A stretch of DNA of 64,000 nucleotides from Corallococcus coralloides (lineage in GTDB: Bacteria > Myxococcota > Myxococcia > Myxococcales > Myxococcaceae): NCBI RefSeq assembly GCF_004104415.1, contig NZ_CP034669.1; one strand, 5' to 3'. Both the position numbers and the translations under genes were made by a program. Below, piece after piece: positions 28,801 to 39,993 of the stretch (position 1 is the first letter of the stretch; the number at the start of each line of letters is the position of its first letter). The notes beneath the pieces are model-generated. The model did not search any database and was not told where the DNA came from. It was given only the letters and a program-made list of their open reading frames with translations.

Positions 28801-30402
28801 CTACGCGTTGCGGCGCACCATGGCCACGTCGTAGTGGCGCTCCGTCACGTAGCCGTTCGCGGCCTTGCCGGGGCGGTACATGTTCCCGGTCTTGTCATCC
28901 ACGTAGAAGCGGTTGTTCGGGTTCGTGTCCCGGCCCGTGCTGGCGTTCTTCGTGCCCGGGTCGTGGAACGTGTAGTAGGTGCGGCCCTTCTCGTCGACGC
29001 CGCGGCCCGTGATGGTCACGAAGTGGTCCGTGAGGCCGTCCGCGTTGTAGCTCGCGTCCTTGTGGCTCACGCCCACGACCACCGGCTTGCCGGCCTCCAG
29101 CTGCTTGTCGATGTAGTTGCGGCCCTCGGCGGCCTTCTTCGAGTCCACCTTCAGCGCGCCGGCGCCGTTCTCGCTCGTGCCCACCTGGATGCGGCGGTCG
29201 GGGCCCAGCACGGTCGCGCCCGCGTCGCGCGACATGGCCGTCGCGGCCTTGAAGCACGCCGTGTCGCTCGCCGTATAGCCGTGGCCGTTCTCGAACTGGC
29301 TGTAGTACGGCACCTTCACGTGCACCGCCGGCTTGTCCTTGGACGGGGCCACCTGCTCCGTGTTCGCGGGGGCCGCCTCCGTGGTGGGCTTGGACGTGTT
29401 CGTGCCCTGGCCTTCCGTGCGGCCCGGCTTCGAGTCGCCGCTCACGGACGGGGGGACCACGCCCGTGTTGGTGTTGGCCGGCTTCGTCGTGGCGCCCGAC
29501 TTCTCCTGCTTCAGCATCGCGAGCGCGTCCTTCGCCTCCGACTTGAAGCGGTTGGCCACGCCCTTCTGCACGTCCTTGGAGCTGCCGGAGAAGTGCACCA
29601 GGGTGCCGTTGCCGTTGGTGCGGCCGCGCTCGGCGTAGATGTCCTTGATGAGCTGCTCGTCGCTCACCTTCGAGGGGTCGCGCCCAGCCAGCGCCTTCTT
29701 GAAGATGTCATCCGCCTTGCCCGGGCCGTGCTGCACGGAGGTGGACCAGGCCACGTCCCGCAGCGCCGCGGAGCGCTTGTCCAGGTCGATGCCCGTCGCA
29801 CTCTTGATGTTGGCGGCGCCCTTGTCGTAGTGCGTGGCCTTGATGTAGTCGTGCTGCGCCTTGTCGAAGCCCTTCGGGTCCTTCGCCGCCAGCTGCTTCC
29901 ACGCGGCGGAGAACTGCGCGGAGCCCGGCTTGCTGCCCGACAGCGCCTGGTGGTACTCCGGGTGCGTCTTCTTCAGCGAGTTGACGAACGACTGCGCAGA
30001 CCCGTTCGCGGAGGCGAACTGGTAGGAGCCGTAGGACACGCCGCCCTTGTCGCCCTTGCCCGTGGACACGGTGCCGGGGCCGCGCGCCTCGTACTTGCGG
30101 CTCAGCCCGCCCAGCTCCCCGGTGGTCGCGCTGCTGGAGGACGTGTTCGTCGCGGGCGTCGTCGCCTTCGCGCCGTCGGTGGCCTGCGTGAAGCTGTCAC
30201 CCGAAGTCTTCGTCCCCGCGCTCGACTTCGTGGTGCCCTTCGTGTCGAAGCCGTCCTGCACCTTCAGCGTCTTGCCGGCCTGGATCTTGTTCGGATCCTT
30301 GATGTTGTTCGCCTTGGCCAGCGCGTCGACGGTCGTGTTGTAGCGCTTCGCGAGGCTGGTAAGCGTGTCACCCGACTTGATGCGGATATTGGAGACGGTC
30401 AC
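28801..30402 (-). CDS. LysM-domain effector-like protein with central unknown domain and C-terminal papain-fold (C39-like) cysteine-peptidase domain
   Basis: N-terminal LysM IRIKSGDTLTSLAKRYNTTVDALAKANNIKDPNKIQAGKTLKV directly at the start (no signal peptide), then a Lys/Thr/Ser/Gly-rich linker and a conserved-looking central domain (GVSYGSYQFASANGSAQSFVNSL...). The C-terminal domain opens VPYYSQFENGHGYTASDTACFKA...DHFVTITG...YTFHDPG, a Cys..His..Asp arrangement like C39-like/CHAP-like peptidases. Local GC is lower than the genome. Confidence 0.78.
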   Translation of the reverse strand: MTVSNIRIKSGDTLTSLAKRYNTTVDALAKANNIKDPNKIQAGKTLKVQDGFDTKGTTKSSAGTKTSGDSFTQATDGAKATTPATNTSSSSATTGELGGLSRKYEARGPGTVSTGKGDKGGVSYGSYQFASANGSAQSFVNSLKKTHPEYHQALSGSKPGSAQFSAAWKQLAAKDPKGFDKAQHDYIKATHYDKGAANIKSATGIDLDKRSAALRDVAWSTSVQHGPGKADDIFKKALAGRDPSKVSDEQLIKDIYAERGRTNGNGTLVHFSGSSKDVQKGVANRFKSEAKDALAMLKQEKSGATTKPANTNTGVVPPSVSGDSKPGRTEGQGTNTSKPTTEAAPANTEQVAPSKDKPAVHVKVPYYSQFENGHGYTASDTACFKAATAMSRDAGATVLGPDRRIQVGTSENGAGALKVDSKKAAEGRNYIDKQLEAGKPVVVGVSHKDASYNADGLTDHFVTITGRGVDEKGRTYYTFHDPGTKNASTGRDTNPNNRFYVDDKTGNMYRPGKAANGYVTERHYDVAMVRRNA

Positions 30403-31633: not shown

Positions 31634-32640
31634 CGCGCCCGTGAGCGACGCCGGGCCCGCAGGCCCCCGCCGAGCAGCAGCGCGACGAGCGCACCGGACA
31701 GGGGGCCCCCCCGCGTCGACGGTCCCCGCACCGACAATCCACGCTCTGCAGTTCGATGAGGGATTGGCGCTCCGCCTCTGACTTGCGGTGGCTGGCGATG
31801 TCCGCGAGCTGCTTCTCCTCCTCGCTGCGGATGCGCTTGAGCTCCACGGCGGCCTGGGCCTCCTGGCGTGAGGCGTCCAGCTGGATCTGGATGTTGGTGT
31901 CGATGGCCTCGCGCAGCTTCAGGGCTGTCTTCTCATCGACGGGGGCGATGTCCTTGATGTCGATGTCGATGATGCGCAGCTGGTTCTCGGAGAAGAGGCG
32001 GTCCTTGCGCGCGCGGCCCGCGTCATCCATGCCGAAGATGGCGCGGCGGATGAGCACGCTGGCGTTCTTGTGGAAGGTCTCGAACTCGTTCTCCGCGGCG
32101 ACCTGGCGGATGCGCGACGCGAGGTTCTCACACACGTACCCGATGAAGTCGTTCACCCGGAAGATGGACTTGTCCTTCTCCGGGTCGCCCTGCACGTCGA
32201 ACTGCCACTTGTAGGAAAGCTTGATGCGCAGCCGCGCGTGGTCGCGCGTGGCCACCTCGAACAGATCCGTGGCGAAGTCCGGCCCCAGCCGCAGCATCAG
32301 CACCTTGAGCTGGCGCGGACGCTTGGGCGTGCTGCCGGACAGGTCCAGCACGGTGACGTCCTCGTACGGGCGCAGCATCACCTTCGCGGGGCCGAACTCC
32401 ACGCGCGCGTGGTTGGTCTCGAAGTCGTTGATGAGGACCGCCGTGTTGTCCTCGATGCGCAGCACGATGGCGCGCGTGCGGTCCCCCTTCTCCGTCGCGA
32501 TCATGGGGCGAGGAGCGCGTGAGCACGCGCGGGCCGACTTCCATCAGCACGACGCCGCGGTTGGCGTCTTCGATGTATGCGTACTCGCGGTTCTTCAGGG
32601 AGATGCGCTGGATGGCTTCGGTGCTGGGGGCGGACGGCAT
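31630..32640 (-). pseudogene. major-vault-protein (MVP) repeat / SPFH-shoulder-like protein, read in three frames (two frameshifts)
   Basis: From ATG at 32640: RISLKNREYAYIEDANRGVVLMEVGPRVLT; then in another frame RAIVLRIEDNTAVLINDFETNHARVEFGPAKVMLRPYEDV. Both match the Vault repeat consensus (vRLxPgEyvhVlDxnTgxxRvevGPqtyvL). This is followed by a band-7/shoulder-like domain (IIDIDIKDIAPVDEKTALKLREAIDTNIQIQLDASRQEAQAA), a coiled coil, and in a third frame a hydrophobic tail LSGALVALLLGGGLRARRRSRAR*. Frame changes occur near 32505 (run of Gs) and near 31700-31745 (gggggccccccc run). Confidence 0.55.
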
Positions 32641-32883
32641 GGCACACCTGCTCGCGGGGGTGGGGTTCGGCCGTGAGACATTGCGAGCCCCATGCCGTCA
32701 CCGCTCCGCCCTGGAACGGCCCCGCACCGCGCCGGACTGGCATGGGTGCTCGCTCCAGTCCGGTGCGTGGTGTTCCAGACTGGAGCGCCTGCCGAGCTTG
32801 GAACGCTGCTCGGCGTCTGTTCGAATGCATCCTGTGCGCGGGCGGGGATGCTCCGGCCCGATGGCACCCACCCCGGAGGAAAC

Positions 32884-33114
32884 ATGAAGGCATCGCGACT
32901 GAAGCAGATGGTTCCTGGATTCGCGCTGATCATCGGCATCATGGCGGGCACGGCGCTGGCCATGGTTCCCGGCTCGACGGCGGAGACGAGCGAGAATCAG
33001 ACGTCTGCTGTCCAGATGATCTGTTCCCGCACCTGTAAGCCGTGCTCGACCCAGTTTGAGTGTGGAACGAACGGGGGTTCATGCGGGGTCTGGCGCTGCA
33101 CCAATCCTCAGTAG
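32884..33114 (+). CDS. small secreted cysteine-rich peptide precursor (76 aa, 6 Cys in mature part)
   Basis: MKASRLKQMVPGFALIIGIMAGTALAMVPGSTA|ETSENQTSAVQMICSRTCKPCSTQFECGTNGGSCGVWRCTNPQ*. Its 3' end is the first bases of the tandem repeat unit. Confidence 0.6.
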   Translation: MKASRLKQMVPGFALIIGIMAGTALAMVPGSTAETSENQTSAVQMICSRTCKPCSTQFECGTNGGSCGVWRCTNPQ

Positions 33115-33140
33115 ACACCTGAAAGAAGCGCCCCCATCCG

Positions 33141-33164
33141 CCTCCGAGTCCCAGGGCTCGGAGG
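33141..33164 (+). promoter_or_regulatory. 24-nt palindrome upstream of toxin gene copy 1
   Basis: CCTCCGAGtcccagggCTCGGAGG followed by ctttcc, 22 nt before the ATG. It is conserved in all three repeat units and could act as a hairpin, attenuator or operator. Confidence 0.35.
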
Positions 33165-33185
33165 CTTTCCAATTGTTGCGAAGAG

Positions 33186-34115
33186 ATGGCCATGCGTCTC
33201 CGGACATGCGGTGCCCTTTTGCTGCTGCTCGTTTTCTCGGCCTGCGCCACGACGGAGCCACGCGCCCGTGCGCCAGCGGCCCGCGGCACGAGGGCTGCCA
33301 ACCTCCAACGAGCGGCGGCGCTGCCCTGGAAGGATGATGGGCGGTGCGTTGTCCGCGAGGCGTCCCAGCCTTGGCCCGTGCTGGTGGAGCGGTGCTATCC
33401 GGCGCTCGACCATGACCGCGTCGAGTTCCGTGACACCACGGGAAGATGCACGGTCGCCTCCGCTGCCGCCGCGACCTTGGGAATCGGGTTCTGCGTGCTG
33501 GCGGCCCCTGAAATCGCCGTGGGAGCCGTCATCGTCCTGGGCGTGGTGGTGGTCGGCGTCGCCATCAAGGATGCACTGGATGCGTACGAGTTCCGCCACC
33601 ACTACCCCGAGGAAGCGGGAACCTCACGGGGGACGAAGGTCGCGTCCCGAGATGCCGCAGCGAAGCCGAAGCCCAAGCTGCAACCGGAGCCAGCGGGCCA
33701 GGGCAGACAGCCCCCGGTGCCGCCAGTGCCCGTGGACAGGACGGGCCGCGCCAGCTGCGAGCCTGTTCCCGTGCGTCACGCAGGCGAGGATCGTGCGCAT
33801 AACGAGTGTGCCGATAAGTTTCCGCCCAACCGTTATCCCGGGATGGATGTGCTTGTTGGCGGTGTACGCTTCGATGCGCTGCAAGTCGGTGTCCGCAAAC
33901 TGTGGGAGATCAAGACCCACCAATTCGATTCGTACAATGATTTCATCCGCGACAGGGAAATTGAAAAGGAACTGATTCAACTAGAGAGTGAGCGAAGAGT
34001 CGCTGAGGCTTGTGGATATGACTTCATCGTTGGGGTGAGTACCGAGGCGCACAAAGCGGCGCTGGAGGAACTGGAACCCACTCTCATTATCGTCGTCACA
34101 GGGTGTCAACGATGA
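33186..34115 (+). CDS. lipoprotein polymorphic toxin with C-terminal PD-(D/E)xK-like nuclease domain (copy 1)
   Basis: Lipobox MAMRLRTCGALLLLLVFSAC, a Cys-containing N-domain, a ~35 aa hydrophobic TM hairpin-like segment, a Pro-rich linker, and a C-terminal GMDVLVGGVRFDALQVGVRKLWEIKTHQFDSY (D...E-x-K arrangement of restriction-endonuclease-fold toxins). The last ~60 aa differ between copies. Confidence 0.8.
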   Translation: MAMRLRTCGALLLLLVFSACATTEPRARAPAARGTRAANLQRAAALPWKDDGRCVVREASQPWPVLVERCYPALDHDRVEFRDTTGRCTVASAAAATLGIGFCVLAAPEIAVGAVIVLGVVVVGVAIKDALDAYEFRHHYPEEAGTSRGTKVASRDAAAKPKPKLQPEPAGQGRQPPVPPVPVDRTGRASCEPVPVRHAGEDRAHNECADKFPPNRYPGMDVLVGGVRFDALQVGVRKLWEIKTHQFDSYNDFIRDREIEKELIQLESERRVAEACGYDFIVGVSTEAHKAALEELEPTLIIVVTGCQR

Positions 34116-34867
34116 CTACGCGAAAAAGACTCACTCTCATTGTCTACGGGCCTGCGCTCTTGGTTGACGACAGCCGCCCCGTCGCCATCGTCAATGGGCT
34201 GGAGAAGGCGTTGCCCAGCTTACGACTGGAGTGGGAAGTCGGAGAAGGCGGGCGCCTTATTGCATTGCCACGGCGCGACGAATGGCTCTTGGCGAGCATT
34301 GAGGATGGAGGATTCCCTCTCATATGCAACGGGGACGAGAGTTATCCCGTGACGGTCAATGGAAGGGACCGGTCCGAGCTCTTCAGTCCCGGCGGCCAGG
34401 CCCAATTTGAAGTTCATGCCAAGCTGCCACTCGACGCACCTGTAATCGCTGCAGCGGCGGCTCTGCTTGAGGCCGTGGCGGAAGGGGCTCGTGCGTTCTG
34501 GGGGCACGCGTCGCCGTATGGTTACGGCTCGGAAGTAGCGAAGCAGTTCCGCCGCTCACCGGATGGGCCCGATCTCTCACCCCGTGGGCTTCCCATGCTC
34601 AACCTTCCCCAGAAAAGCCCCAGGCCTGAGACGCCCTATTTCCTGGGGTGGCTGAACTACTGGTCCGCTGCCGCCGCGGAGGTCATCGGGTTCCCGGATC
34701 CTGCTCGCGATGCCGAGCTGCTCTCGCGGGCGCGTCGCACTCCGTCGGGCGGGTGGATCGTGCAGCTCACGGAGACACCGCTCGATTACGACAACCCCCT
34801 GCACGTGGAAGCGCTCAAGCGGACCTATGAGCGCTTCCCGGAGATCGGTGGACGCGAGGGGCCCTGA
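34112..34867 (+). CDS. cognate immunity-like protein (copy 1)
   Basis: ATGA overlap with the toxin stop. The N-terminal ~110 aa are variable between copies and the C-terminal ~130 aa are nearly identical (…WLNYWSAAAAEVIGFPDPARDAELLSRARRTPSGGWIVQLTETPLDYDNPLHVEALKRTYERFPEIGG). Confidence 0.75.
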   Translation: MTTRKRLTLIVYGPALLVDDSRPVAIVNGLEKALPSLRLEWEVGEGGRLIALPRRDEWLLASIEDGGFPLICNGDESYPVTVNGRDRSELFSPGGQAQFEVHAKLPLDAPVIAAAAALLEAVAEGARAFWGHASPYGYGSEVAKQFRRSPDGPDLSPRGLPMLNLPQKSPRPETPYFLGWLNYWSAAAAEVIGFPDPARDAELLSRARRTPSGGWIVQLTETPLDYDNPLHVEALKRTYERFPEIGGREGP

Positions 34868-34989
34868 TGCCCCGTTGCCGTTACCGCGCGTCCGCGCTCA
34901 GCGCCGTGCTTGTCGCGTACTCGGCCGTGACCAGGGCGAGGGCTCCTGCGGGGGGGGTGGCGCTGCACCAACCCGATGTAGACACCTGA
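34867..34989 (+). pseudogene. degenerate remnant of the Cys-rich peptide gene (unit 1/2 junction)
   Basis: tgATG overlap with the immunity stop. It encodes MPRCRYRASALSAVLVAYSAVTRARAPAGGVALHQPDVDT*. Its 3' DNA is homologous to the 3' end of the 32884..33114 gene. Confidence 0.3.
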
Positions 34990-35008
34990 CGGGAAGCATT
35001 CCCATCAG

Positions 35009-35032
35009 CCTCCGAGTCCCAGGGCTCGGAGG
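35009..35032 (+). promoter_or_regulatory. 24-nt palindrome upstream of toxin gene copy 2
   Basis: Identical CCTCCGAGtcccagggCTCGGAGG, 22 nt before the ATG at 35054. Confidence 0.35.
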
Positions 35033-35053
35033 CTTTCCAATTGTTGCGAAGAG

Positions 35054-35983
35054 ATGGCCATGCGTCTCCGGACATGCGGCGCCCTTTTGCTTCTGCTCAT
35101 TCTTTCGGCCTGCGCCACGACGGAGCCACGCCCCAGGGCGTCAGCGGCCCGCGGCACGAGGGCTGCCAACCTCCAACGAGCGGCGGCGCTGCCCTGGAGG
35201 GATGACGGGCGGTGCGTTGTCCGCGAGGCGTCCCAGCCCTGGCCCGTGCTGGTGGAGCGGTGCTATCCGGCGCTCGATCATGATCGCGTCGAGTTCCGTG
35301 ACACCACGGGAAGATGCACGGTCGCCTCCGCTGCCGCCGCGACCGTGGGAATCGGGTTCTGCGTGCTGGCGGCCCCTGAAATCGCCGTGGGAGCCGTCAT
35401 CGTCCTGGGCGTGGTGGTGGTCGGCGTCGCCATCCAGGAAGAATGGGACGCCTATGAGCTCCGCCATCTCTACCCCGAGGAAGCAGGAACCTCACGGGGG
35501 ACGAAGGTCGCGTCCCGAGATGCTGTAGAGAAACCGAAGCCCAAGCTGGAACCGGAGCCAGCGGGCCAGGGCAGACAGCCCCCGGTGCCGCCTGTGCCCG
35601 TGGACAGGACGGGCCGCGCCAGCTGCGAGCCTGTTCCCGTGCGTCACGCGGGCGAAGATGATCCCCATAACGAGTGTGCCGATAGGTTTCCGCCCAACCG
35701 TTATCCAGGGATGGACGTACTTGTGGGCGGTGTACGCTTCGATGCGTTGCAAGTCGGCGCGCGTGTGTTGTGGGAGATCAAGACCCATCAATTTGATTCG
35801 TACAATTCCTATATCCAAAAAAGAGAGATCGCGAAGGAACTCAAGCAATTGGACAAGGAGCGAGCCGTCGCATTGGCATGTGGATATCGCTTCGTTATTG
35901 GGGTGAGCACCCAAGCGCACAAAGACGCGCTACTCGAAGCAGATTCCTCATTCGATGTCGTCGTCACGGGATGCACACGATGA
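35054..35983 (+). CDS. lipoprotein polymorphic toxin, PD-(D/E)xK-like C-terminus (copy 2)
   Basis: 309 aa. It is near-identical to copy 1 through residue ~230, and its C-terminal tail diverges (…YNSYIQKREIAKELKQLDKERAVALACGYRFVIGVSTQAHKDALLEADSSFDVVVTGCTR). Confidence 0.8.
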   Translation: MAMRLRTCGALLLLLILSACATTEPRPRASAARGTRAANLQRAAALPWRDDGRCVVREASQPWPVLVERCYPALDHDRVEFRDTTGRCTVASAAAATVGIGFCVLAAPEIAVGAVIVLGVVVVGVAIQEEWDAYELRHLYPEEAGTSRGTKVASRDAVEKPKPKLEPEPAGQGRQPPVPPVPVDRTGRASCEPVPVRHAGEDDPHNECADRFPPNRYPGMDVLVGGVRFDALQVGARVLWEIKTHQFDSYNSYIQKREIAKELKQLDKERAVALACGYRFVIGVSTQAHKDALLEADSSFDVVVTGCTR

Positions 35984-36735
35984 CCAGACCTGGACGCCTC
36001 ACCTTCATTGTCTACGCGCCTGCTCTCGTGGGTAAAGATGGCCGCACGCTCGATGTCGTCCATGGGATGGAAAGGGCCTTCCCTGGCTTGCGGCTGGCGT
36101 GGCGGCTCTCGGATGGCGGTCGCCCCATCGCGCTGCCGCGACGCGACGATTGGCTCGTGGAAAAGATTGAGGACGGGGGATTCCCCATTGTGTGCAACGG
36201 GGACGAGGGTTACCCCGTGACGGTGATGGGGTGGGGAAGACTGGGAATCCTCAAGCCGGGCGGTCAGCCCCAGTTCGAAGTGCATGCAGAAATGCCTTTA
36301 GACGAGCCAGTGATCGCGGCGGCGGCGGCCGTGCTTGAGGCCATGGCGGAGGGAGCACGCTCATTCTGGGGCCACGCGTCGCCGTATGGTTACGGCTCGG
36401 AAGTAGCGAAGCAGTTCCGCCGTTCGCCGGACGGACCTGAGCTCTCCCCCCGTGGGCTTCCCATGCTCACCCTTCCCGAAAAGAGCCCCAGGCCGGAGAC
36501 GCCCTCTTTCCTGGGCTGGGTGAACTATTGGTCCGCTGCCGCCGCGGAGGTCATCGGGTTCCCCGATCCTGCTCGCGATGCCGAGCTGCTCTCGCGGGCG
36601 CGTCGCACTCCGTCGGGCGGGTGGATCGTGCAGCTCACGGAGACACCGCTCGATTACGACAACCCCCTGCACGTGGAAGCGCTCAAGCGGACCTATGAGC
36701 GCTTCCCGGAGATCGGTGGACGCGCGGGGCCCTGA
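35980..36735 (+). CDS. cognate immunity-like protein (copy 2)
   Basis: ATGA overlap. Its N-terminus diverges (MTRPGRLTFIVYAPALVGKDGRTLDVVHGMERAFPGLRLAWRL...) and its C-terminus is identical to copy 1. Confidence 0.75.
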   Translation: MTRPGRLTFIVYAPALVGKDGRTLDVVHGMERAFPGLRLAWRLSDGGRPIALPRRDDWLVEKIEDGGFPIVCNGDEGYPVTVMGWGRLGILKPGGQPQFEVHAEMPLDEPVIAAAAAVLEAMAEGARSFWGHASPYGYGSEVAKQFRRSPDGPELSPRGLPMLTLPEKSPRPETPSFLGWVNYWSAAAAEVIGFPDPARDAELLSRARRTPSGGWIVQLTETPLDYDNPLHVEALKRTYERFPEIGGRAGP

Positions 36736-36848
36736 TGCCCCGTTGCCGTTACCGCGCGTCCGCGCTCAGCGCCGTGCTTGTCGCGTACTCGGCCGTGACC
36801 AGGGCGAGGGCTCCTGCGGGGGTGTGGCGCTGCACCAACCCGATGTAG
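36735..36848 (+). pseudogene. degenerate remnant of the Cys-rich peptide gene (unit 2/3 junction)
   Basis: MPRCRYRASALSAVLVAYSAVTRARAPAGVWRCTNPM* retains the GVWRCTNP C-terminus of the intact peptide gene. Confidence 0.3.
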
Positions 36849-36875
36849 ACACCTGACGGGAAGCATTCCCATCAG

Positions 36876-36899
36876 CCTCCGAGTCCCAGGACTCGGACG
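36876..36899 (+). promoter_or_regulatory. palindrome variant upstream of toxin gene copy 3
   Basis: CCTCCGAGtcccaggaCTCGGACG, a slightly degenerated copy. Confidence 0.3.
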
Positions 36900-36920
36900 C
36901 TTTTCAATTGTTGCGAAGAG

Positions 36921-37850
36921 ATGGCCATGCGTCTCCGGAGCTGCGGCGCCCTTTTGCTTCTGCTCGTTTTCTCGGCCTGCGCCACGACGGAGCCACGCCC
37001 CAGGGCGTCAGCGGCCCGCGGTAAGAGGGCTGCCAACCTCCAACGAGCAGCGGCGCTACCCTGGAAGGATGATGGGCGGTGCGTTGTCCGCGAGGCGTCC
37101 CAGCCCTGGCCCGTGCTGGTCGAGCGGTGCTACCCGGCACTCGACCATGACCGGGTCGAGTTCCGCGACACCACGGGAAGATGCACGGTCGCCTCCGCTG
37201 CCGCCGCGACCGTGGGAATCGGGTTCTGCGTGCTGGCGGCCCCTGAAATCGCCGTGGGAGCCGTCATCGTCCTGGGCGTGGTGGTGGTCGGTGTCGCCAT
37301 CCAGGAGGAATGGGACGCATATGAACTGCGCCACCACTACCCCGAGGAAGCTGGGACCTCACGAGGGACGAAGGTTGCGTCCCGAGACGCTGTAACGAAG
37401 CCGAAGCCCAAGCTGGAACCGGAGCCAGCGGGCCAGGGCCGGCAGCCCCCAGTGCCGCCTGTGCCCGTGGACTGGACGGGCCGCGCCAGTTGCGAGCCTG
37501 TTCCCGTGCCTCACGCGGGCGAAGATGATCCCCATAACGAGTGTGCCGATAAGTTTCCTCCCAACCGTTATCCAGGGATGGACGTACTTGTGGGCGGTGT
37601 ACGCTTCGATGCGCTGCAAGTCGGCGTGCGCAAACTGTGGGAGATCAAGACCCACCAATTCGATTCATATAACGCCTTTGTCCAGGATCAGGAGATTGCG
37701 AAGGAAGTGATACAACTGAAGAAGGAGCGAGCTGCCGCAGCGGCATGTGGATACGACTTCGTCGTGGGGGTGAGTACCCAAGCGCATAAAGACGCGCTAC
37801 GCGAAGAAGTTCCCGCGATCGATGTCGTCGTTACGGGGTGTGCACGATGA
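36921..37850 (+). CDS. lipoprotein polymorphic toxin, PD-(D/E)xK-like C-terminus (copy 3)
   Basis: 309 aa, with a third variant of the C-terminal tail (…YNAFVQDQEIAKEVIQLKKERAAAAACGYDFVVGVSTQAHKDALREEVPAIDVVVTGCAR). Confidence 0.8.
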   Translation: MAMRLRSCGALLLLLVFSACATTEPRPRASAARGKRAANLQRAAALPWKDDGRCVVREASQPWPVLVERCYPALDHDRVEFRDTTGRCTVASAAAATVGIGFCVLAAPEIAVGAVIVLGVVVVGVAIQEEWDAYELRHHYPEEAGTSRGTKVASRDAVTKPKPKLEPEPAGQGRQPPVPPVPVDWTGRASCEPVPVPHAGEDDPHNECADKFPPNRYPGMDVLVGGVRFDALQVGVRKLWEIKTHQFDSYNAFVQDQEIAKEVIQLKKERAAAAACGYDFVVGVSTQAHKDALREEVPAIDVVVTGCAR

Positions 37851-38608
37851 CCAGGCGGAGAGCCCTTACCCTTATCGTCTACGCGCCTGCGCTCATGGGT
37901 AACAACAGCCGCACAGTCGCCGTCGTCCATGGGATGGAGAAAGCGTTCCCCGGCCTACGCCTGGAGTGGAAACTAGATGAAGGCGGGCGCCCCATTGCAT
38001 TGCCACAGCGCGATGCATGGCTCTTGGCGAGCAACAAGGACGGTGGATTCCCAATCGTGTGCAACGGCGATGAGAGTTACCCCGTGACGGTCTGGGGAAT
38101 GGAAAGCTCAGGCATCCTCAGCCCAGGCGGTCAGGCCCAGTTTGAAGTCCACGCAAAGCTGCCCTTGGACGAGCCTGTAATCGCGGCAGCGGCGGCTCTG
38201 CTTGAGGCCGTGGCGGAGGGGGCACGTTCATTCTGGGGGCACGCGTCGCCGTACGGCTACGGCTCGGAAGTCGCGCAGCAGTTTCGCCGATCACCGGACG
38301 GACCTGAGCGTTCCCCTCGTGGGCTTCCCATGCTCAAGCTTCCAGAGACACTCCCAGCGCCTGAGATTCCCTGTTTCCTCGGGTGGCTGAACTATTGGTC
38401 CGCGGCAGCCGCGGAGGTCATCGGGTTCCCGGATCCTGCTCGTGATGACGAACTGCTCTCGCGGGCACGCCGCACTCCGTCGGGCGGGTGGATCGTGCAG
38501 CTCACGGAGACTCCGCTCGATTACGACAACCCCGTGCACTTGGACGCGCTCAAGCGGGCCTACGAACGCTTTCCAGCAATCGGCGGGCGCACAGCGCCTT
38601 TGCCCTGA
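37847..38608 (+). CDS. cognate immunity-like protein (copy 3)
   Basis: ATGA overlap. N-terminal variant (MTRRRALTLIVYAPALMGNNSRTVAVVHGMEKAFPGLRLEWKL...). Confidence 0.75.
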   Translation: MTRRRALTLIVYAPALMGNNSRTVAVVHGMEKAFPGLRLEWKLDEGGRPIALPQRDAWLLASNKDGGFPIVCNGDESYPVTVWGMESSGILSPGGQAQFEVHAKLPLDEPVIAAAAALLEAVAEGARSFWGHASPYGYGSEVAQQFRRSPDGPERSPRGLPMLKLPETLPAPEIPCFLGWLNYWSAAAAEVIGFPDPARDDELLSRARRTPSGGWIVQLTETPLDYDNPVHLDALKRAYERFPAIGGRTAPLP

Positions 38609-38614
38609 AACAGG

Positions 38615-38650
38615 ACAGCCGCCCGTCACCTCTCCGGCGCGGGCGGCTGT
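38615..38650. terminator. GC-rich hairpin between convergent genes (bidirectional terminator candidate)
   Basis: ACAGCCGCCCG-x14-CGGGCGGCTGT is an 11-bp stem, located between the immunity copy 3 stop (38608) and the rdgC 3' end (38667). Confidence 0.45.
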
Positions 38651-38666
38651 TCCATCAATCTCCCAC

Positions 38667-39993
38667 TCAGCCCCGGGCAGCGCGGGCGTCACGGCCCTTG
38701 GCGCGGGCGGCCTTGGAGAGCAGGTCGCTCCCCTTCTCCTCGCCCTTCATCCACGCCTTCAGCGCGGGCACCACCTGCTTGCTCCAGGCGCGTCCGGCGC
38801 GCACGGCCAGGAAGTCCTGCACCAGCGCGTCCACGATGGCGGAGAGCTGCTCGGTCAACTCCAGACGCTCGGAGAGCTGATCATCCTCTTCCTCCGTCAT
38901 GAGCGCGGGCAGCTTGGCGGCGCGAATGTCCAGGAACTCGGAATCCAGCGTGACTTCGTATTCGCGCTCGCCGTGCGAGATGCGCAGCCGCGCCTGGGAC
39001 ACCAGCAGGCCCCGGTCCAGCGAGTGGCGCACGTTCTCCGAATACGGCGCCAGCGTGCCCTTGGCGCTCATCTCCGTGACGTCGCCGGCCACGCCGCGCA
39101 GCACCACCTTGCCCAGGTAGAGCACCACGACGCCCGCGCCGTCGTGCTCGACCAGCGGGTCGCCCGACTCCGAGCGCCACAACAGCCAGGTCATGAACTC
39201 GCGGCCCAGGTAGGCCCGGCCGCGCAAGAGCTGTTCGCGCGCCTTGCCCTTTTCGACTTCGGCTTCGTCCTTCTCCTCCTCCGTGGCGGCACCATCCACG
39301 CCGACATCGCCCCGGGCGAACGCCGCCTCTTCCCTCGCCTGCTCACGCCTCGCCATGGGTGTCCTCCACCGAAGCCGTCGCCGGCAGGTCCATGCCAATG
39401 AGCTCCGCCGTGGGGCCCAGGGCCTTCTCGTCGATGCCCGCGCGCTGCGCCATGGACGCGGGCGTGATGCCAATCACCTTCACCGCGAGGGCGCCTTCCA
39501 GCGCCACGCAGATCTCATCCACCGTCTTGCGCGACGCGGCCCAGACCTGCACCGTGTGCGTCTTCAGGTTCCACGTCACGTCCAGCGTGCTGGTGCGCGG
39601 CACCGCGCGCTGACGCAACAGCTGCTTGAGCTCCGCGCGCTGCTTGTTCTTCTCCGCGCGCGCGGGCGGCCGGCCGTTCTCCTTGCCGAAGGCGGCGGCC
39701 CACTTGTCCAGCTCCGACTTCATCATCGACGCGGGCACCTTCAGCGTGTCGATGCGGAAGGAGAACAGGGCGTACTCGCCATAGAAGAGGTTGCCGGTGG
39801 CGAACTCGGAGGACTCCGGGTTCTCCAGCTCGACAAACCCTGCGGCGCGCTCCTCCTCGGAGCGGCGGTCGATGGGCTCGAACGCATGGGACTTGAGTCC
39901 CTTGGTCATCCAGCGCTTCACGTCGGACGGCGCATCCTTGGCCGGCTCGGTCCGGAAGCGCGAAAAGGTCACGGCACCACGTAGGACAGGCAT
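38667..39993 (-). pseudogene. rdgC: recombination-associated protein RdgC homologue, split into two overlapping frames
   Basis: The N-terminal two-thirds (39343..39993, MPVLRGAVTFSRFR...ELKQLLRQRAVPRTSTLDVTWNLKTHTVQVWAASRKTVDEICVALEGAL) and the C-terminal third (38667..39356, ...MTWLLWRSESGDPLVEHDG...LSERLELTEQLSAIVDALVQDFL) each align with consecutive parts of RdgC. They lie in different frames and overlap at 39343-39356. Confidence 0.6.

Follow-up and report, generated by a model that had tools for sequence, protein, structure and literature searches.

Precursors of the SCIFF/ranthipeptide type are about 45 residues long and contain six cysteines (Cys), much like the peptide reported here. 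To our knowledge, SCIFF peptides have no Sec signal and always lie beside a radical S-adenosylmethionine (SAM) maturase gene. Among toxin-immunity systems, TseT of the TseT/TsiT pair is delivered by a type VI secretion system. Closer in gene order is sitB, which precedes the toxin gene sitA; its product bears a type I signal and raises the transfer of the toxin (PMC5562445). The sitB gene overlaps sitA by 11 bp, the product is a predicted outer-membrane beta-barrel, and it accompanies 66 of 69 sitA genes in M. xanthus isolates (PMC5562445). Here, we analyzed a stretch of 64,000 nucleotides (nt) from Corallococcus coralloides (contig NZ_CP034669.1; the window hereafter), in which an open reading frame (ORF) of 76 amino acids (aa) at 32884..33114 on the plus strand, encoding a cysteine-rich peptide, stands at the head of an array of three tandem toxin-immunity units of about 1868 nt. 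An earlier note, made from the letters alone, had taken this ORF to be part of the ancestral duplicated unit, and two short ORFs behind the first two immunity genes to be its degenerate copies. We propose instead, at a probability of roughly 0.78, that the ORF is an autonomous gene for a secreted six-Cys peptide, independent of the toxin-immunity cassette, and that the short ORFs are duplication scars.

The ORF translates exactly as had been claimed, with six Cys in its product. Since 12 kb of the region contain 123 ORFs that reach 30 aa or more, the presence of a reading frame at 32884..33114 alone means little. Nevertheless, its homologues, invariant cysteines, ratio of nonsynonymous to synonymous substitution rates (dN/dS), ribosome-binding site and frame signal mark it, on comparative sequence evidence, as a genuine gene. 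The GC content at third codon positions (GC3) is 0.77 in the annotated frame versus 0.49 and 0.58 in the remaining frames, and a GGAGG ribosome-binding site (32875..32879, +) lies 4 nt 5' of the ATG and is conserved in two of the loci fetched for comparison, L001 and L082. By inspection, the precursor has the anatomy of a Sec signal, namely a charged N-region (net charge +3), a hydrophobic core (a 15-aa window with a mean Kyte-Doolittle value of 2.3) and small residues at -3/-1, in agreement with the signal peptide read there earlier. The 43-aa mature peptide proposed at that time follows from cleavage at A33|E34 (STA|E), which fits; however, A26|M27 (ALA|M) fits equally well, giving a range of 43-50 aa. 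A variable and rapidly evolving linker leads from the signal to a core of about 30 residues, in which the six Cys are spaced C-x3-C-x2-C-x5-C-x6-C-x4-C. In the AlphaFold2 model the core reached a predicted local distance difference test (pLDDT) score of 74-85 (63 overall) with little secondary structure. A Foldseek search of this model against the PDB gave no match below E = 1, and searches of Pfam, NCBIfam and PADLOC yielded no model matching the peptide.

Homologues of the peptide form a family, unnamed and defined in the present analysis, of secreted six-Cys peptides in Myxococcaceae. Twelve close homologues were found in Corallococcus (E 1e-24 to 1e-43, 59-96% identity), and a profile search of 1.84 billion representative proteins returned six further, more distant small peptides of the same architecture. 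At 90% identity the family falls into 31 clusters, none of them named, whose members come from Corallococcus, Pyxidicoccus and metagenomes, with profile matches at E 1e-18 to 1e-32. All six Cys are invariant across the family, and their spacing is constant except in P0139 and P0141, where x4 replaces x5. Six positions of the signal peptide are likewise invariant (G12, A14, L15, G18, G22 and L25), while the linker between signal and core differs by more than 20 residues in length. Among seven orthologues dN/dS was 0.31 for the signal, 0.98 for the linker and 0.40 for the core, and the comparison argues that the peptide scaffold is under constraint. The product of 32884..33114 has the conserved signal positions, the variable linker and a core of the family form C-x3-C-x2-C-x(4-5)-C-x6-C-x4-C. 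Its paralogues are solitary genes in four unrelated neighborhoods. Beside one of them, P0135, in a Myxococcaceae metagenome-assembled genome, we observed a second small gene 118 nt further 3' (L085, 8344-8577); its 77-aa product, unrelated in sequence to P0135, has a lipobox LSAC and four Cys in the C-terminal 25 residues.

From its sequence features, the peptide is most likely exported by Sec, stabilized by disulfides and extracellular. The precursor would leave the cytoplasm through Sec and lose its signal to signal peptidase I, after which the core would fold into a small knot with three disulfide bonds, the inter-Cys loops varying between strains, and the peptide would act outside the cytoplasm, independently of the toxins. 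That it serves as an antimicrobial, toxin-like or signaling molecule of a predatory soil bacterium is a guess. The bacteriocin-like peptide that the earlier note offered as one option might fit too, with a role independent of the array. Just as tentatively, it may represent a previously undescribed, Myxococcaceae-restricted family of extracellular disulfide-rich mini-proteins with a conotoxin-like architecture, used in predation, interbacterial antagonism or signaling. On either view, the family adds a set of unannotated, putatively secreted six-Cys peptides to what predatory myxobacteria encode.

Given that the peptide gene leads the array, its relation to the cassette was assessed across 77 genomic loci encoding relatives of the toxin family, DUF6310, from Myxococcaceae and Archangiaceae. 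A gene of the immunity family, DUF5953, lies 3' of the DUF6310 gene in all 77, the usual overlap being about 10 nt, whereas the peptide-family profile detected a peptide gene upstream of DUF6310 in only two (L005 and L059), both at the same locus, which is linked to a gene for a major-vault-protein-like protein. A search for Cys-rich small ORFs upstream of the other 75 DUF6310 loci returned only GC-rich noise frames. At the vault-linked locus three states were found. Peptide and toxin-immunity pair occur together in the window, L001, L002, L003, L005, L059 and L081; the pair occurs alone in L004 and L078; and the peptide occurs alone in L082, L083 and six C. exiguus assemblies (L087-L092). A further orthologue, in L093, has neither the vault gene nor a toxin-immunity pair nearby, and at least nine genomes (L082, L083, L087-L092 and L093) therefore have the peptide but no pair. 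Conversely, the cassette forms tandem arrays that lack the peptide in C. terminator (L027, 4007-8919; three toxin copies, one of them truncated) and in Vitiosangium (L041, 2-5718; two copies).

The borders of the peptide gene tell the same story. The gene belongs to a module at 32796..33175 (+), comprising 88 nt of upstream sequence, the ribosome-binding site, the ORF and a terminator-like hairpin, and this module behaves as a single presence/absence unit. The hairpin (33140..33165, +) starts 25 nt 3' of the stop codon and has an 11-bp GC-rich stem and a CCAG loop, followed by TTTCCAATTGTT (-28.4 kcal/mol, z-score -2.6). It is kept after every peptide orthologue examined, even where the flanks have diverged, and in L005 and L082 a compensatory change turns an A-U pair of the stem into G-C. 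Among the fetched loci it is confined to those with the peptide gene or a fragment of it. A simple terminator scan missed this hairpin because its U-tract is weak, and an Rfam search of 32000-39500 gave no matches. In L004 (C. carmarthensis) positions 32796-33175 are cleanly missing, window position ~32795 being joined straight to ~33176, so that the vault-side intergenic sequence abuts the toxin ribosome-binding region TTGCGA(A/G)GA..GGCCATG. In L082 (Corallococcus sp. AB011P) homology to the window spans the peptide gene and its hairpin and ends at 33175. With its own ribosome-binding site, its own terminator-like hairpin and sharp boundaries at ~32795/32796 and 33175/33176, the peptide module appears from these comparisons to be autonomous, and it and the cassette (from 33176) are best described as two abutting presence/absence polymorphisms that vary independently. 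The GC content of the peptide gene (61%) and of the toxin and immunity genes (64% and 63%; compared over 32884-34867) is lower than the window average of 70%, which is consistent with both modules being accessory or mobile in origin.

The peptide gene, on this reading, is no component of the toxin-immunity cassette and merely adjoins the array. The suggestion in the earlier note that it was part of the ancestral duplicated unit did not survive the comparison: all 77 loci have the pair but only two the peptide, peptide-only and pair-only loci exist, the gene has its own hairpin, and its paralogues are solitary. The homologous peptides that the note expected beside toxin-immunity pairs elsewhere were found nowhere outside one syntenic, vault-linked position. 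On this result, the toxin-immunity array needs no small-peptide partner.

We then consider the two short ORFs. Those at 34867..34989 and 36735..36848 exist as described; each has a tgATG overlap, the A of the TGA that ends immunity gene 1 or 2 being the first base of its ATG. The repeat boundary does fall within the 3' part of the peptide gene, some 54 nt ahead of the stop codon (33061..33114, + in unit 1). The peptide-derived part of both ORFs, however, is only the last ~54 nt, and it is frameshifted. Copy 1 (34927..34980, +), of the TNPM type, has gained 2 nt at a G run and is out of frame in its tgATG ORF, with no parental codon read in frame; copy 2 (36795..36848, +) has gained 1 nt at the G run, and only its last nine codons (GVWRCTNPM) are read in the parental frame. 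The product ending (V)WRCTNPM reported for both ORFs is thus right for the second, which ends in GVWRCTNPM, and wrong for the first, which ends in ...PAGGVALHQPDVDT (likewise written ...GGVALHQPDVDT). The two fragments are closest to the TNPM allele of L003/L001 (…QGEGSCG(I/V)WRCTNPM; alignment score 96) rather than to the resident leading TNPQ allele (…TNGGSCGVWRCTNPQ; alignment score 61). Neither ORF retains the parental frame, the signal or the Cys core, and the peptide-family profile detected neither. As frameshifted scars they do not show purifying selection, an outcome that the earlier note had itself counted against its proposal.

The remainder of each junction is a filler of ~71 nt, which includes the last codons of the immunity gene and the tgATG (34856..34926, + for junction 1; 36724..36794, + for junction 2). 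Compared with the peptide gene, the first ~71 nt of the short ORFs reached a local score of 12 versus 10.3 +/- 1.6 for shuffled sequences, with 59 of 300 shuffles reaching 12, and a search for the source in the peptide gene, the window and the 90-odd fetched loci gave nothing above chance. Ahead of the filler, unit 1 ceases to match single-copy loci 12 nt short of the stop codon of immunity gene 1, and the first two immunity proteins end in ...GGR(E/A)GP versus the native ...G(G/A)RSxPLP. Copies of the hairpin follow both fragments, at 35008..35033 (+) and, with one stem mismatch, at 36875..36900 (+). Junctions 1 and 2 share a stretch of 75 nt at 100% identity, which indicates that the junction was formed once and then copied by unequal crossing-over. 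We suggest that the cassette was duplicated in tandem, with the left breakpoint about 54 nt before the peptide stop codon, the right breakpoint in the last immunity-gene codons and about 71 nt of filler joining both ends, and that the third unit, with an identical junction, would have come from unequal crossing-over. The short ORFs, in this light, read as frameshifted scars of local tandem duplication and not as genes; they are most likely non-functional and should not be annotated as genes. The copied hairpin, now present after each immunity gene, is the sole piece of the junctions that may still matter. The array is a clear example of tandem amplification of a polymorphic toxin cassette that left recognizable junction scars.

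Several alternatives were weighed against an autonomous peptide gene. The one that survives best, although we consider it improbable, is that the peptide is tied not to the toxins but to the divergent vault-like gene (31743..32640, -), its most constant neighbor. The vault-like protein is a homologue of the eukaryotic major vault protein, with Pfam Vault repeats and MVP_shoulder, and our literature search found no mention of bacterial or myxobacterial vault proteins. The gene is intact (755-759 aa) in L001, L003, L081, L082 and L087-L092 (for example L001 5490-7757, L082 7482-9758 and L087 2334-4610), and it is an immediate or near neighbor in all Corallococcus orthologue loci examined. In the window, however, an internal deletion of 900 nt, a frameshift and the loss of its 3' end have disrupted it, leaving residues 1-41 fused out of frame to 342-601 and the C-terminus missing, while the peptide gene beside it is intact. 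Furthermore, L093 and all paralogues are without a vault gene, L004 and L078 keep the vault gene and lack the peptide, and extra genes intervene between the two in L003 and L087-L092. Further along the minus strand of the window, at 28801-30402, we noted a gene whose 533-aa product combines a LysM domain with a T6SS_VgrG3-like, peptidoglycan-targeting C-terminal domain; its synteny is conserved in other Corallococcus genomes.

A SitB-like accessory or co-secreted partner, aiding export or delivery of the DUF6310 lipoprotein toxin, has even less to commend it. The precedent of sitB raising toxin transfer from a position upstream of sitA (PMC5562445), the export signals on both peptide and toxin, and the same-strand position of the peptide gene 48-77 nt 5' of the toxin gene in seven Corallococcus genomes would all suit such a role. 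A SitB-like protein would nevertheless be expected as an overlapping cistron systematically linked to the toxin, and the peptide is not: 75 of the 77 DUF6310-DUF5953 loci have neither the peptide nor another small Cys-rich ORF upstream, the peptide persists in at least nine genomes that lack the pair, and two keep the pair at the vault-linked locus without the peptide. In addition, a conserved hairpin lies in the 71-nt gap between the peptide and toxin genes of the window, whereas SitB is a predicted beta-barrel encoded in an 11-bp overlap with sitA, and a peptide of 43-50 aa would presumably be too small to form a barrel.

Slightly weaker again is the proposal of a leader or regulatory upstream ORF, whose translation would govern read-through of the hairpin into the toxin-immunity genes. 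The hairpin does stand between the ORF and the toxin gene, where a sigma-70 scan found no promoter-like site, and in pair-only strains the toxin gene lies directly behind the shared intergenic region, so that transcription of the array here may have to cross the peptide module. Nevertheless, conservation at the protein level, with invariant Cys and dN/dS below 1, is not what a leader calls for; the gene and hairpin are retained where no toxin follows, and the paralogues are solitary. The hairpin also lies 25 nt past the stop codon with no alternative pairing evident, which makes it unlike an attenuator.

About as doubtful is the idea that the peptide is the precursor of a ribosomally synthesized and post-translationally modified peptide (RiPP), for example SCIFF/ranthipeptide-like in its CX3CX2C stretch, its N-terminus then being the leader on which a maturase would act. 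In its favor are the six Cys packed into about 30 residues and an unusually well conserved N-terminal region. On the other hand, no adjacent gene for a radical-SAM enzyme, cyclase, peptidase-transporter or other maturase was found in 12 neighborhood types, a difference from SCIFF loci, and the N-terminus is built like a Sec signal, with charged, hydrophobic and AxA-like parts. That GC-rich DNA produced this reading frame by chance, as the abundance of background ORFs might suggest, is refuted by its conservation, together with the invariant Cys, dN/dS, ribosome-binding site and GC3 frame signal.

Some points weigh against the autonomy of the peptide gene and what we propose for its product. 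In the seven genomes the peptide gene does precede the toxin gene in the same orientation, at a distance of 48-77 nt, and the two may be co-transcribed by read-through, since no promoter-like site was found between them and the hairpin has a weak U-tract. The toxin gene of pair-only strains, placed directly behind the shared intergenic region, likewise suggests that transcription of the array may start 5' of the peptide module's ORF and continue past the hairpins. The signal peptide was recognized by inspection, so that export, secretion and disulfides are predictions from the sequence; the peptide model is moderately confident and has no structural match, so that any fold or function assigned to it is provisional; and no source of the ~71-nt junction filler was found in the peptide gene, the window or the fetched loci. 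A weaker version of the proposal for a novel peptide family takes the first of these points in, namely that strains with both modules may co-transcribe the peptide gene and the toxin array via a leaky hairpin. Such co-transcription would reflect insertion history and is no evidence of shared function.

The three units behind the peptide gene, all on the plus strand, encode toxin 1 (33192..34115, with an alternative ATG at 33186), immunity candidate 1 (34103..34867, a 13-nt overlap with the toxin gene), toxin 2 (35060..35983), immunity candidate 2 (35971..36735), toxin 3 (36927..37850) and immunity candidate 3 (37838..38608). The toxins are lipoproteins of 307-309 aa that bear the lipobox LVFSAC and match Pfam DUF6310 in their C-terminal part (E about 1e-57). 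The immunity candidates, of 254-256 aa, belong to DUF5953 (E about 1e-113; 1.8e-113 for the first) and overlap the toxin genes. Immunity candidate 1 has the junction-altered tail …GGREGP, and candidate 3 has the native tail …GGRTAPLP and native downstream sequence. The C-terminal domain of DUF6310 appears to be a PD-(D/E)xK (Tox-REase-5-like) nuclease domain, as it shows both the restriction-endonuclease fold and the D...(D/E)xK motif. No PDB sequence was matched when the DUF6310 alignment was searched as a profile; only the comparison of folds succeeded. At the level of predicted structure, DUF6310 and DUF5953 would thus make up a nuclease toxin-immunity pair; neither family was mentioned in the literature that we searched.

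The three units are mosaics. Their flanks are 93-99% identical, while the 3' end of the toxin C-terminal-domain sequence and the 5' half of the immunity gene (window 33863-34462 and the equivalent part of units 2 and 3) are only 65-80% identical. For the encoded proteins, identity between units is 76-81% in the C-terminal domain of the toxin and 63-74% in the N-terminal half of the immunity protein. This drop in identity indicates that the array holds three distinct toxin-immunity alleles, and the toxin and immunity labels given in the earlier note gain support from it. The mosaic of a 65-80% identical allelic segment and 100% identical junctions points to allele replacement or strong diversifying selection after amplification. 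We also noted a long, strongly hydrophobic and invariant stretch in the DUF6310 protein, GFCVLAAPEIAVGAVIVLGVVVVGVAI (window 33462-33600, residues ~91-137), followed by a proline-rich linker. It resembles a transmembrane helix inside a lipobox-bearing protein, the N-terminal half of which was modelled at pLDDT below 50.

The array has features of described polymorphic toxins. Like SitA/SitI and TseT/TsiT, it has an overlapping, downstream immunity-like gene and many alleles per genome, which differ chiefly in the C-terminal domain of the toxin and the N-terminal half of the immunity protein. The lipobox of the DUF6310 proteins, their many alleles per genome and their restriction to myxobacteria recall SitA/SitI (PMC5562445, PMC8546572). 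Of the features that define SitA, which include TraAB-dependent transfer, the lipobox, a nuclease-like C-terminal domain and a downstream partner are present, but the N-terminal region, at ~186 aa, reaches only about half of the ~375 aa of a SitA escort domain (PMC8546572), and its transmembrane-like helix sets it apart from both SitA/SitI and TseT/TsiT. The peptide resembles SitB in its type I-style export signal and in its position directly upstream of lipoprotein toxin and immunity genes. Unlike SitB, it is 76 aa long, is separated from the toxin gene by a hairpin, occurs at only 2 of 77 related cassettes and is also present where there is no cassette. Compared with knottin- and conotoxin-type precursors, the peptide family is bacterial, is restricted to Myxococcaceae and has its own spacing, C-x3-C-x2-C-x5-C-x6-C-x4-C, with no structural match. 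Nevertheless, it shares with them a conserved signal, a variable linker and a short core in which six Cys are fixed while the loops vary, as well as small paralogous families scattered across genomes.
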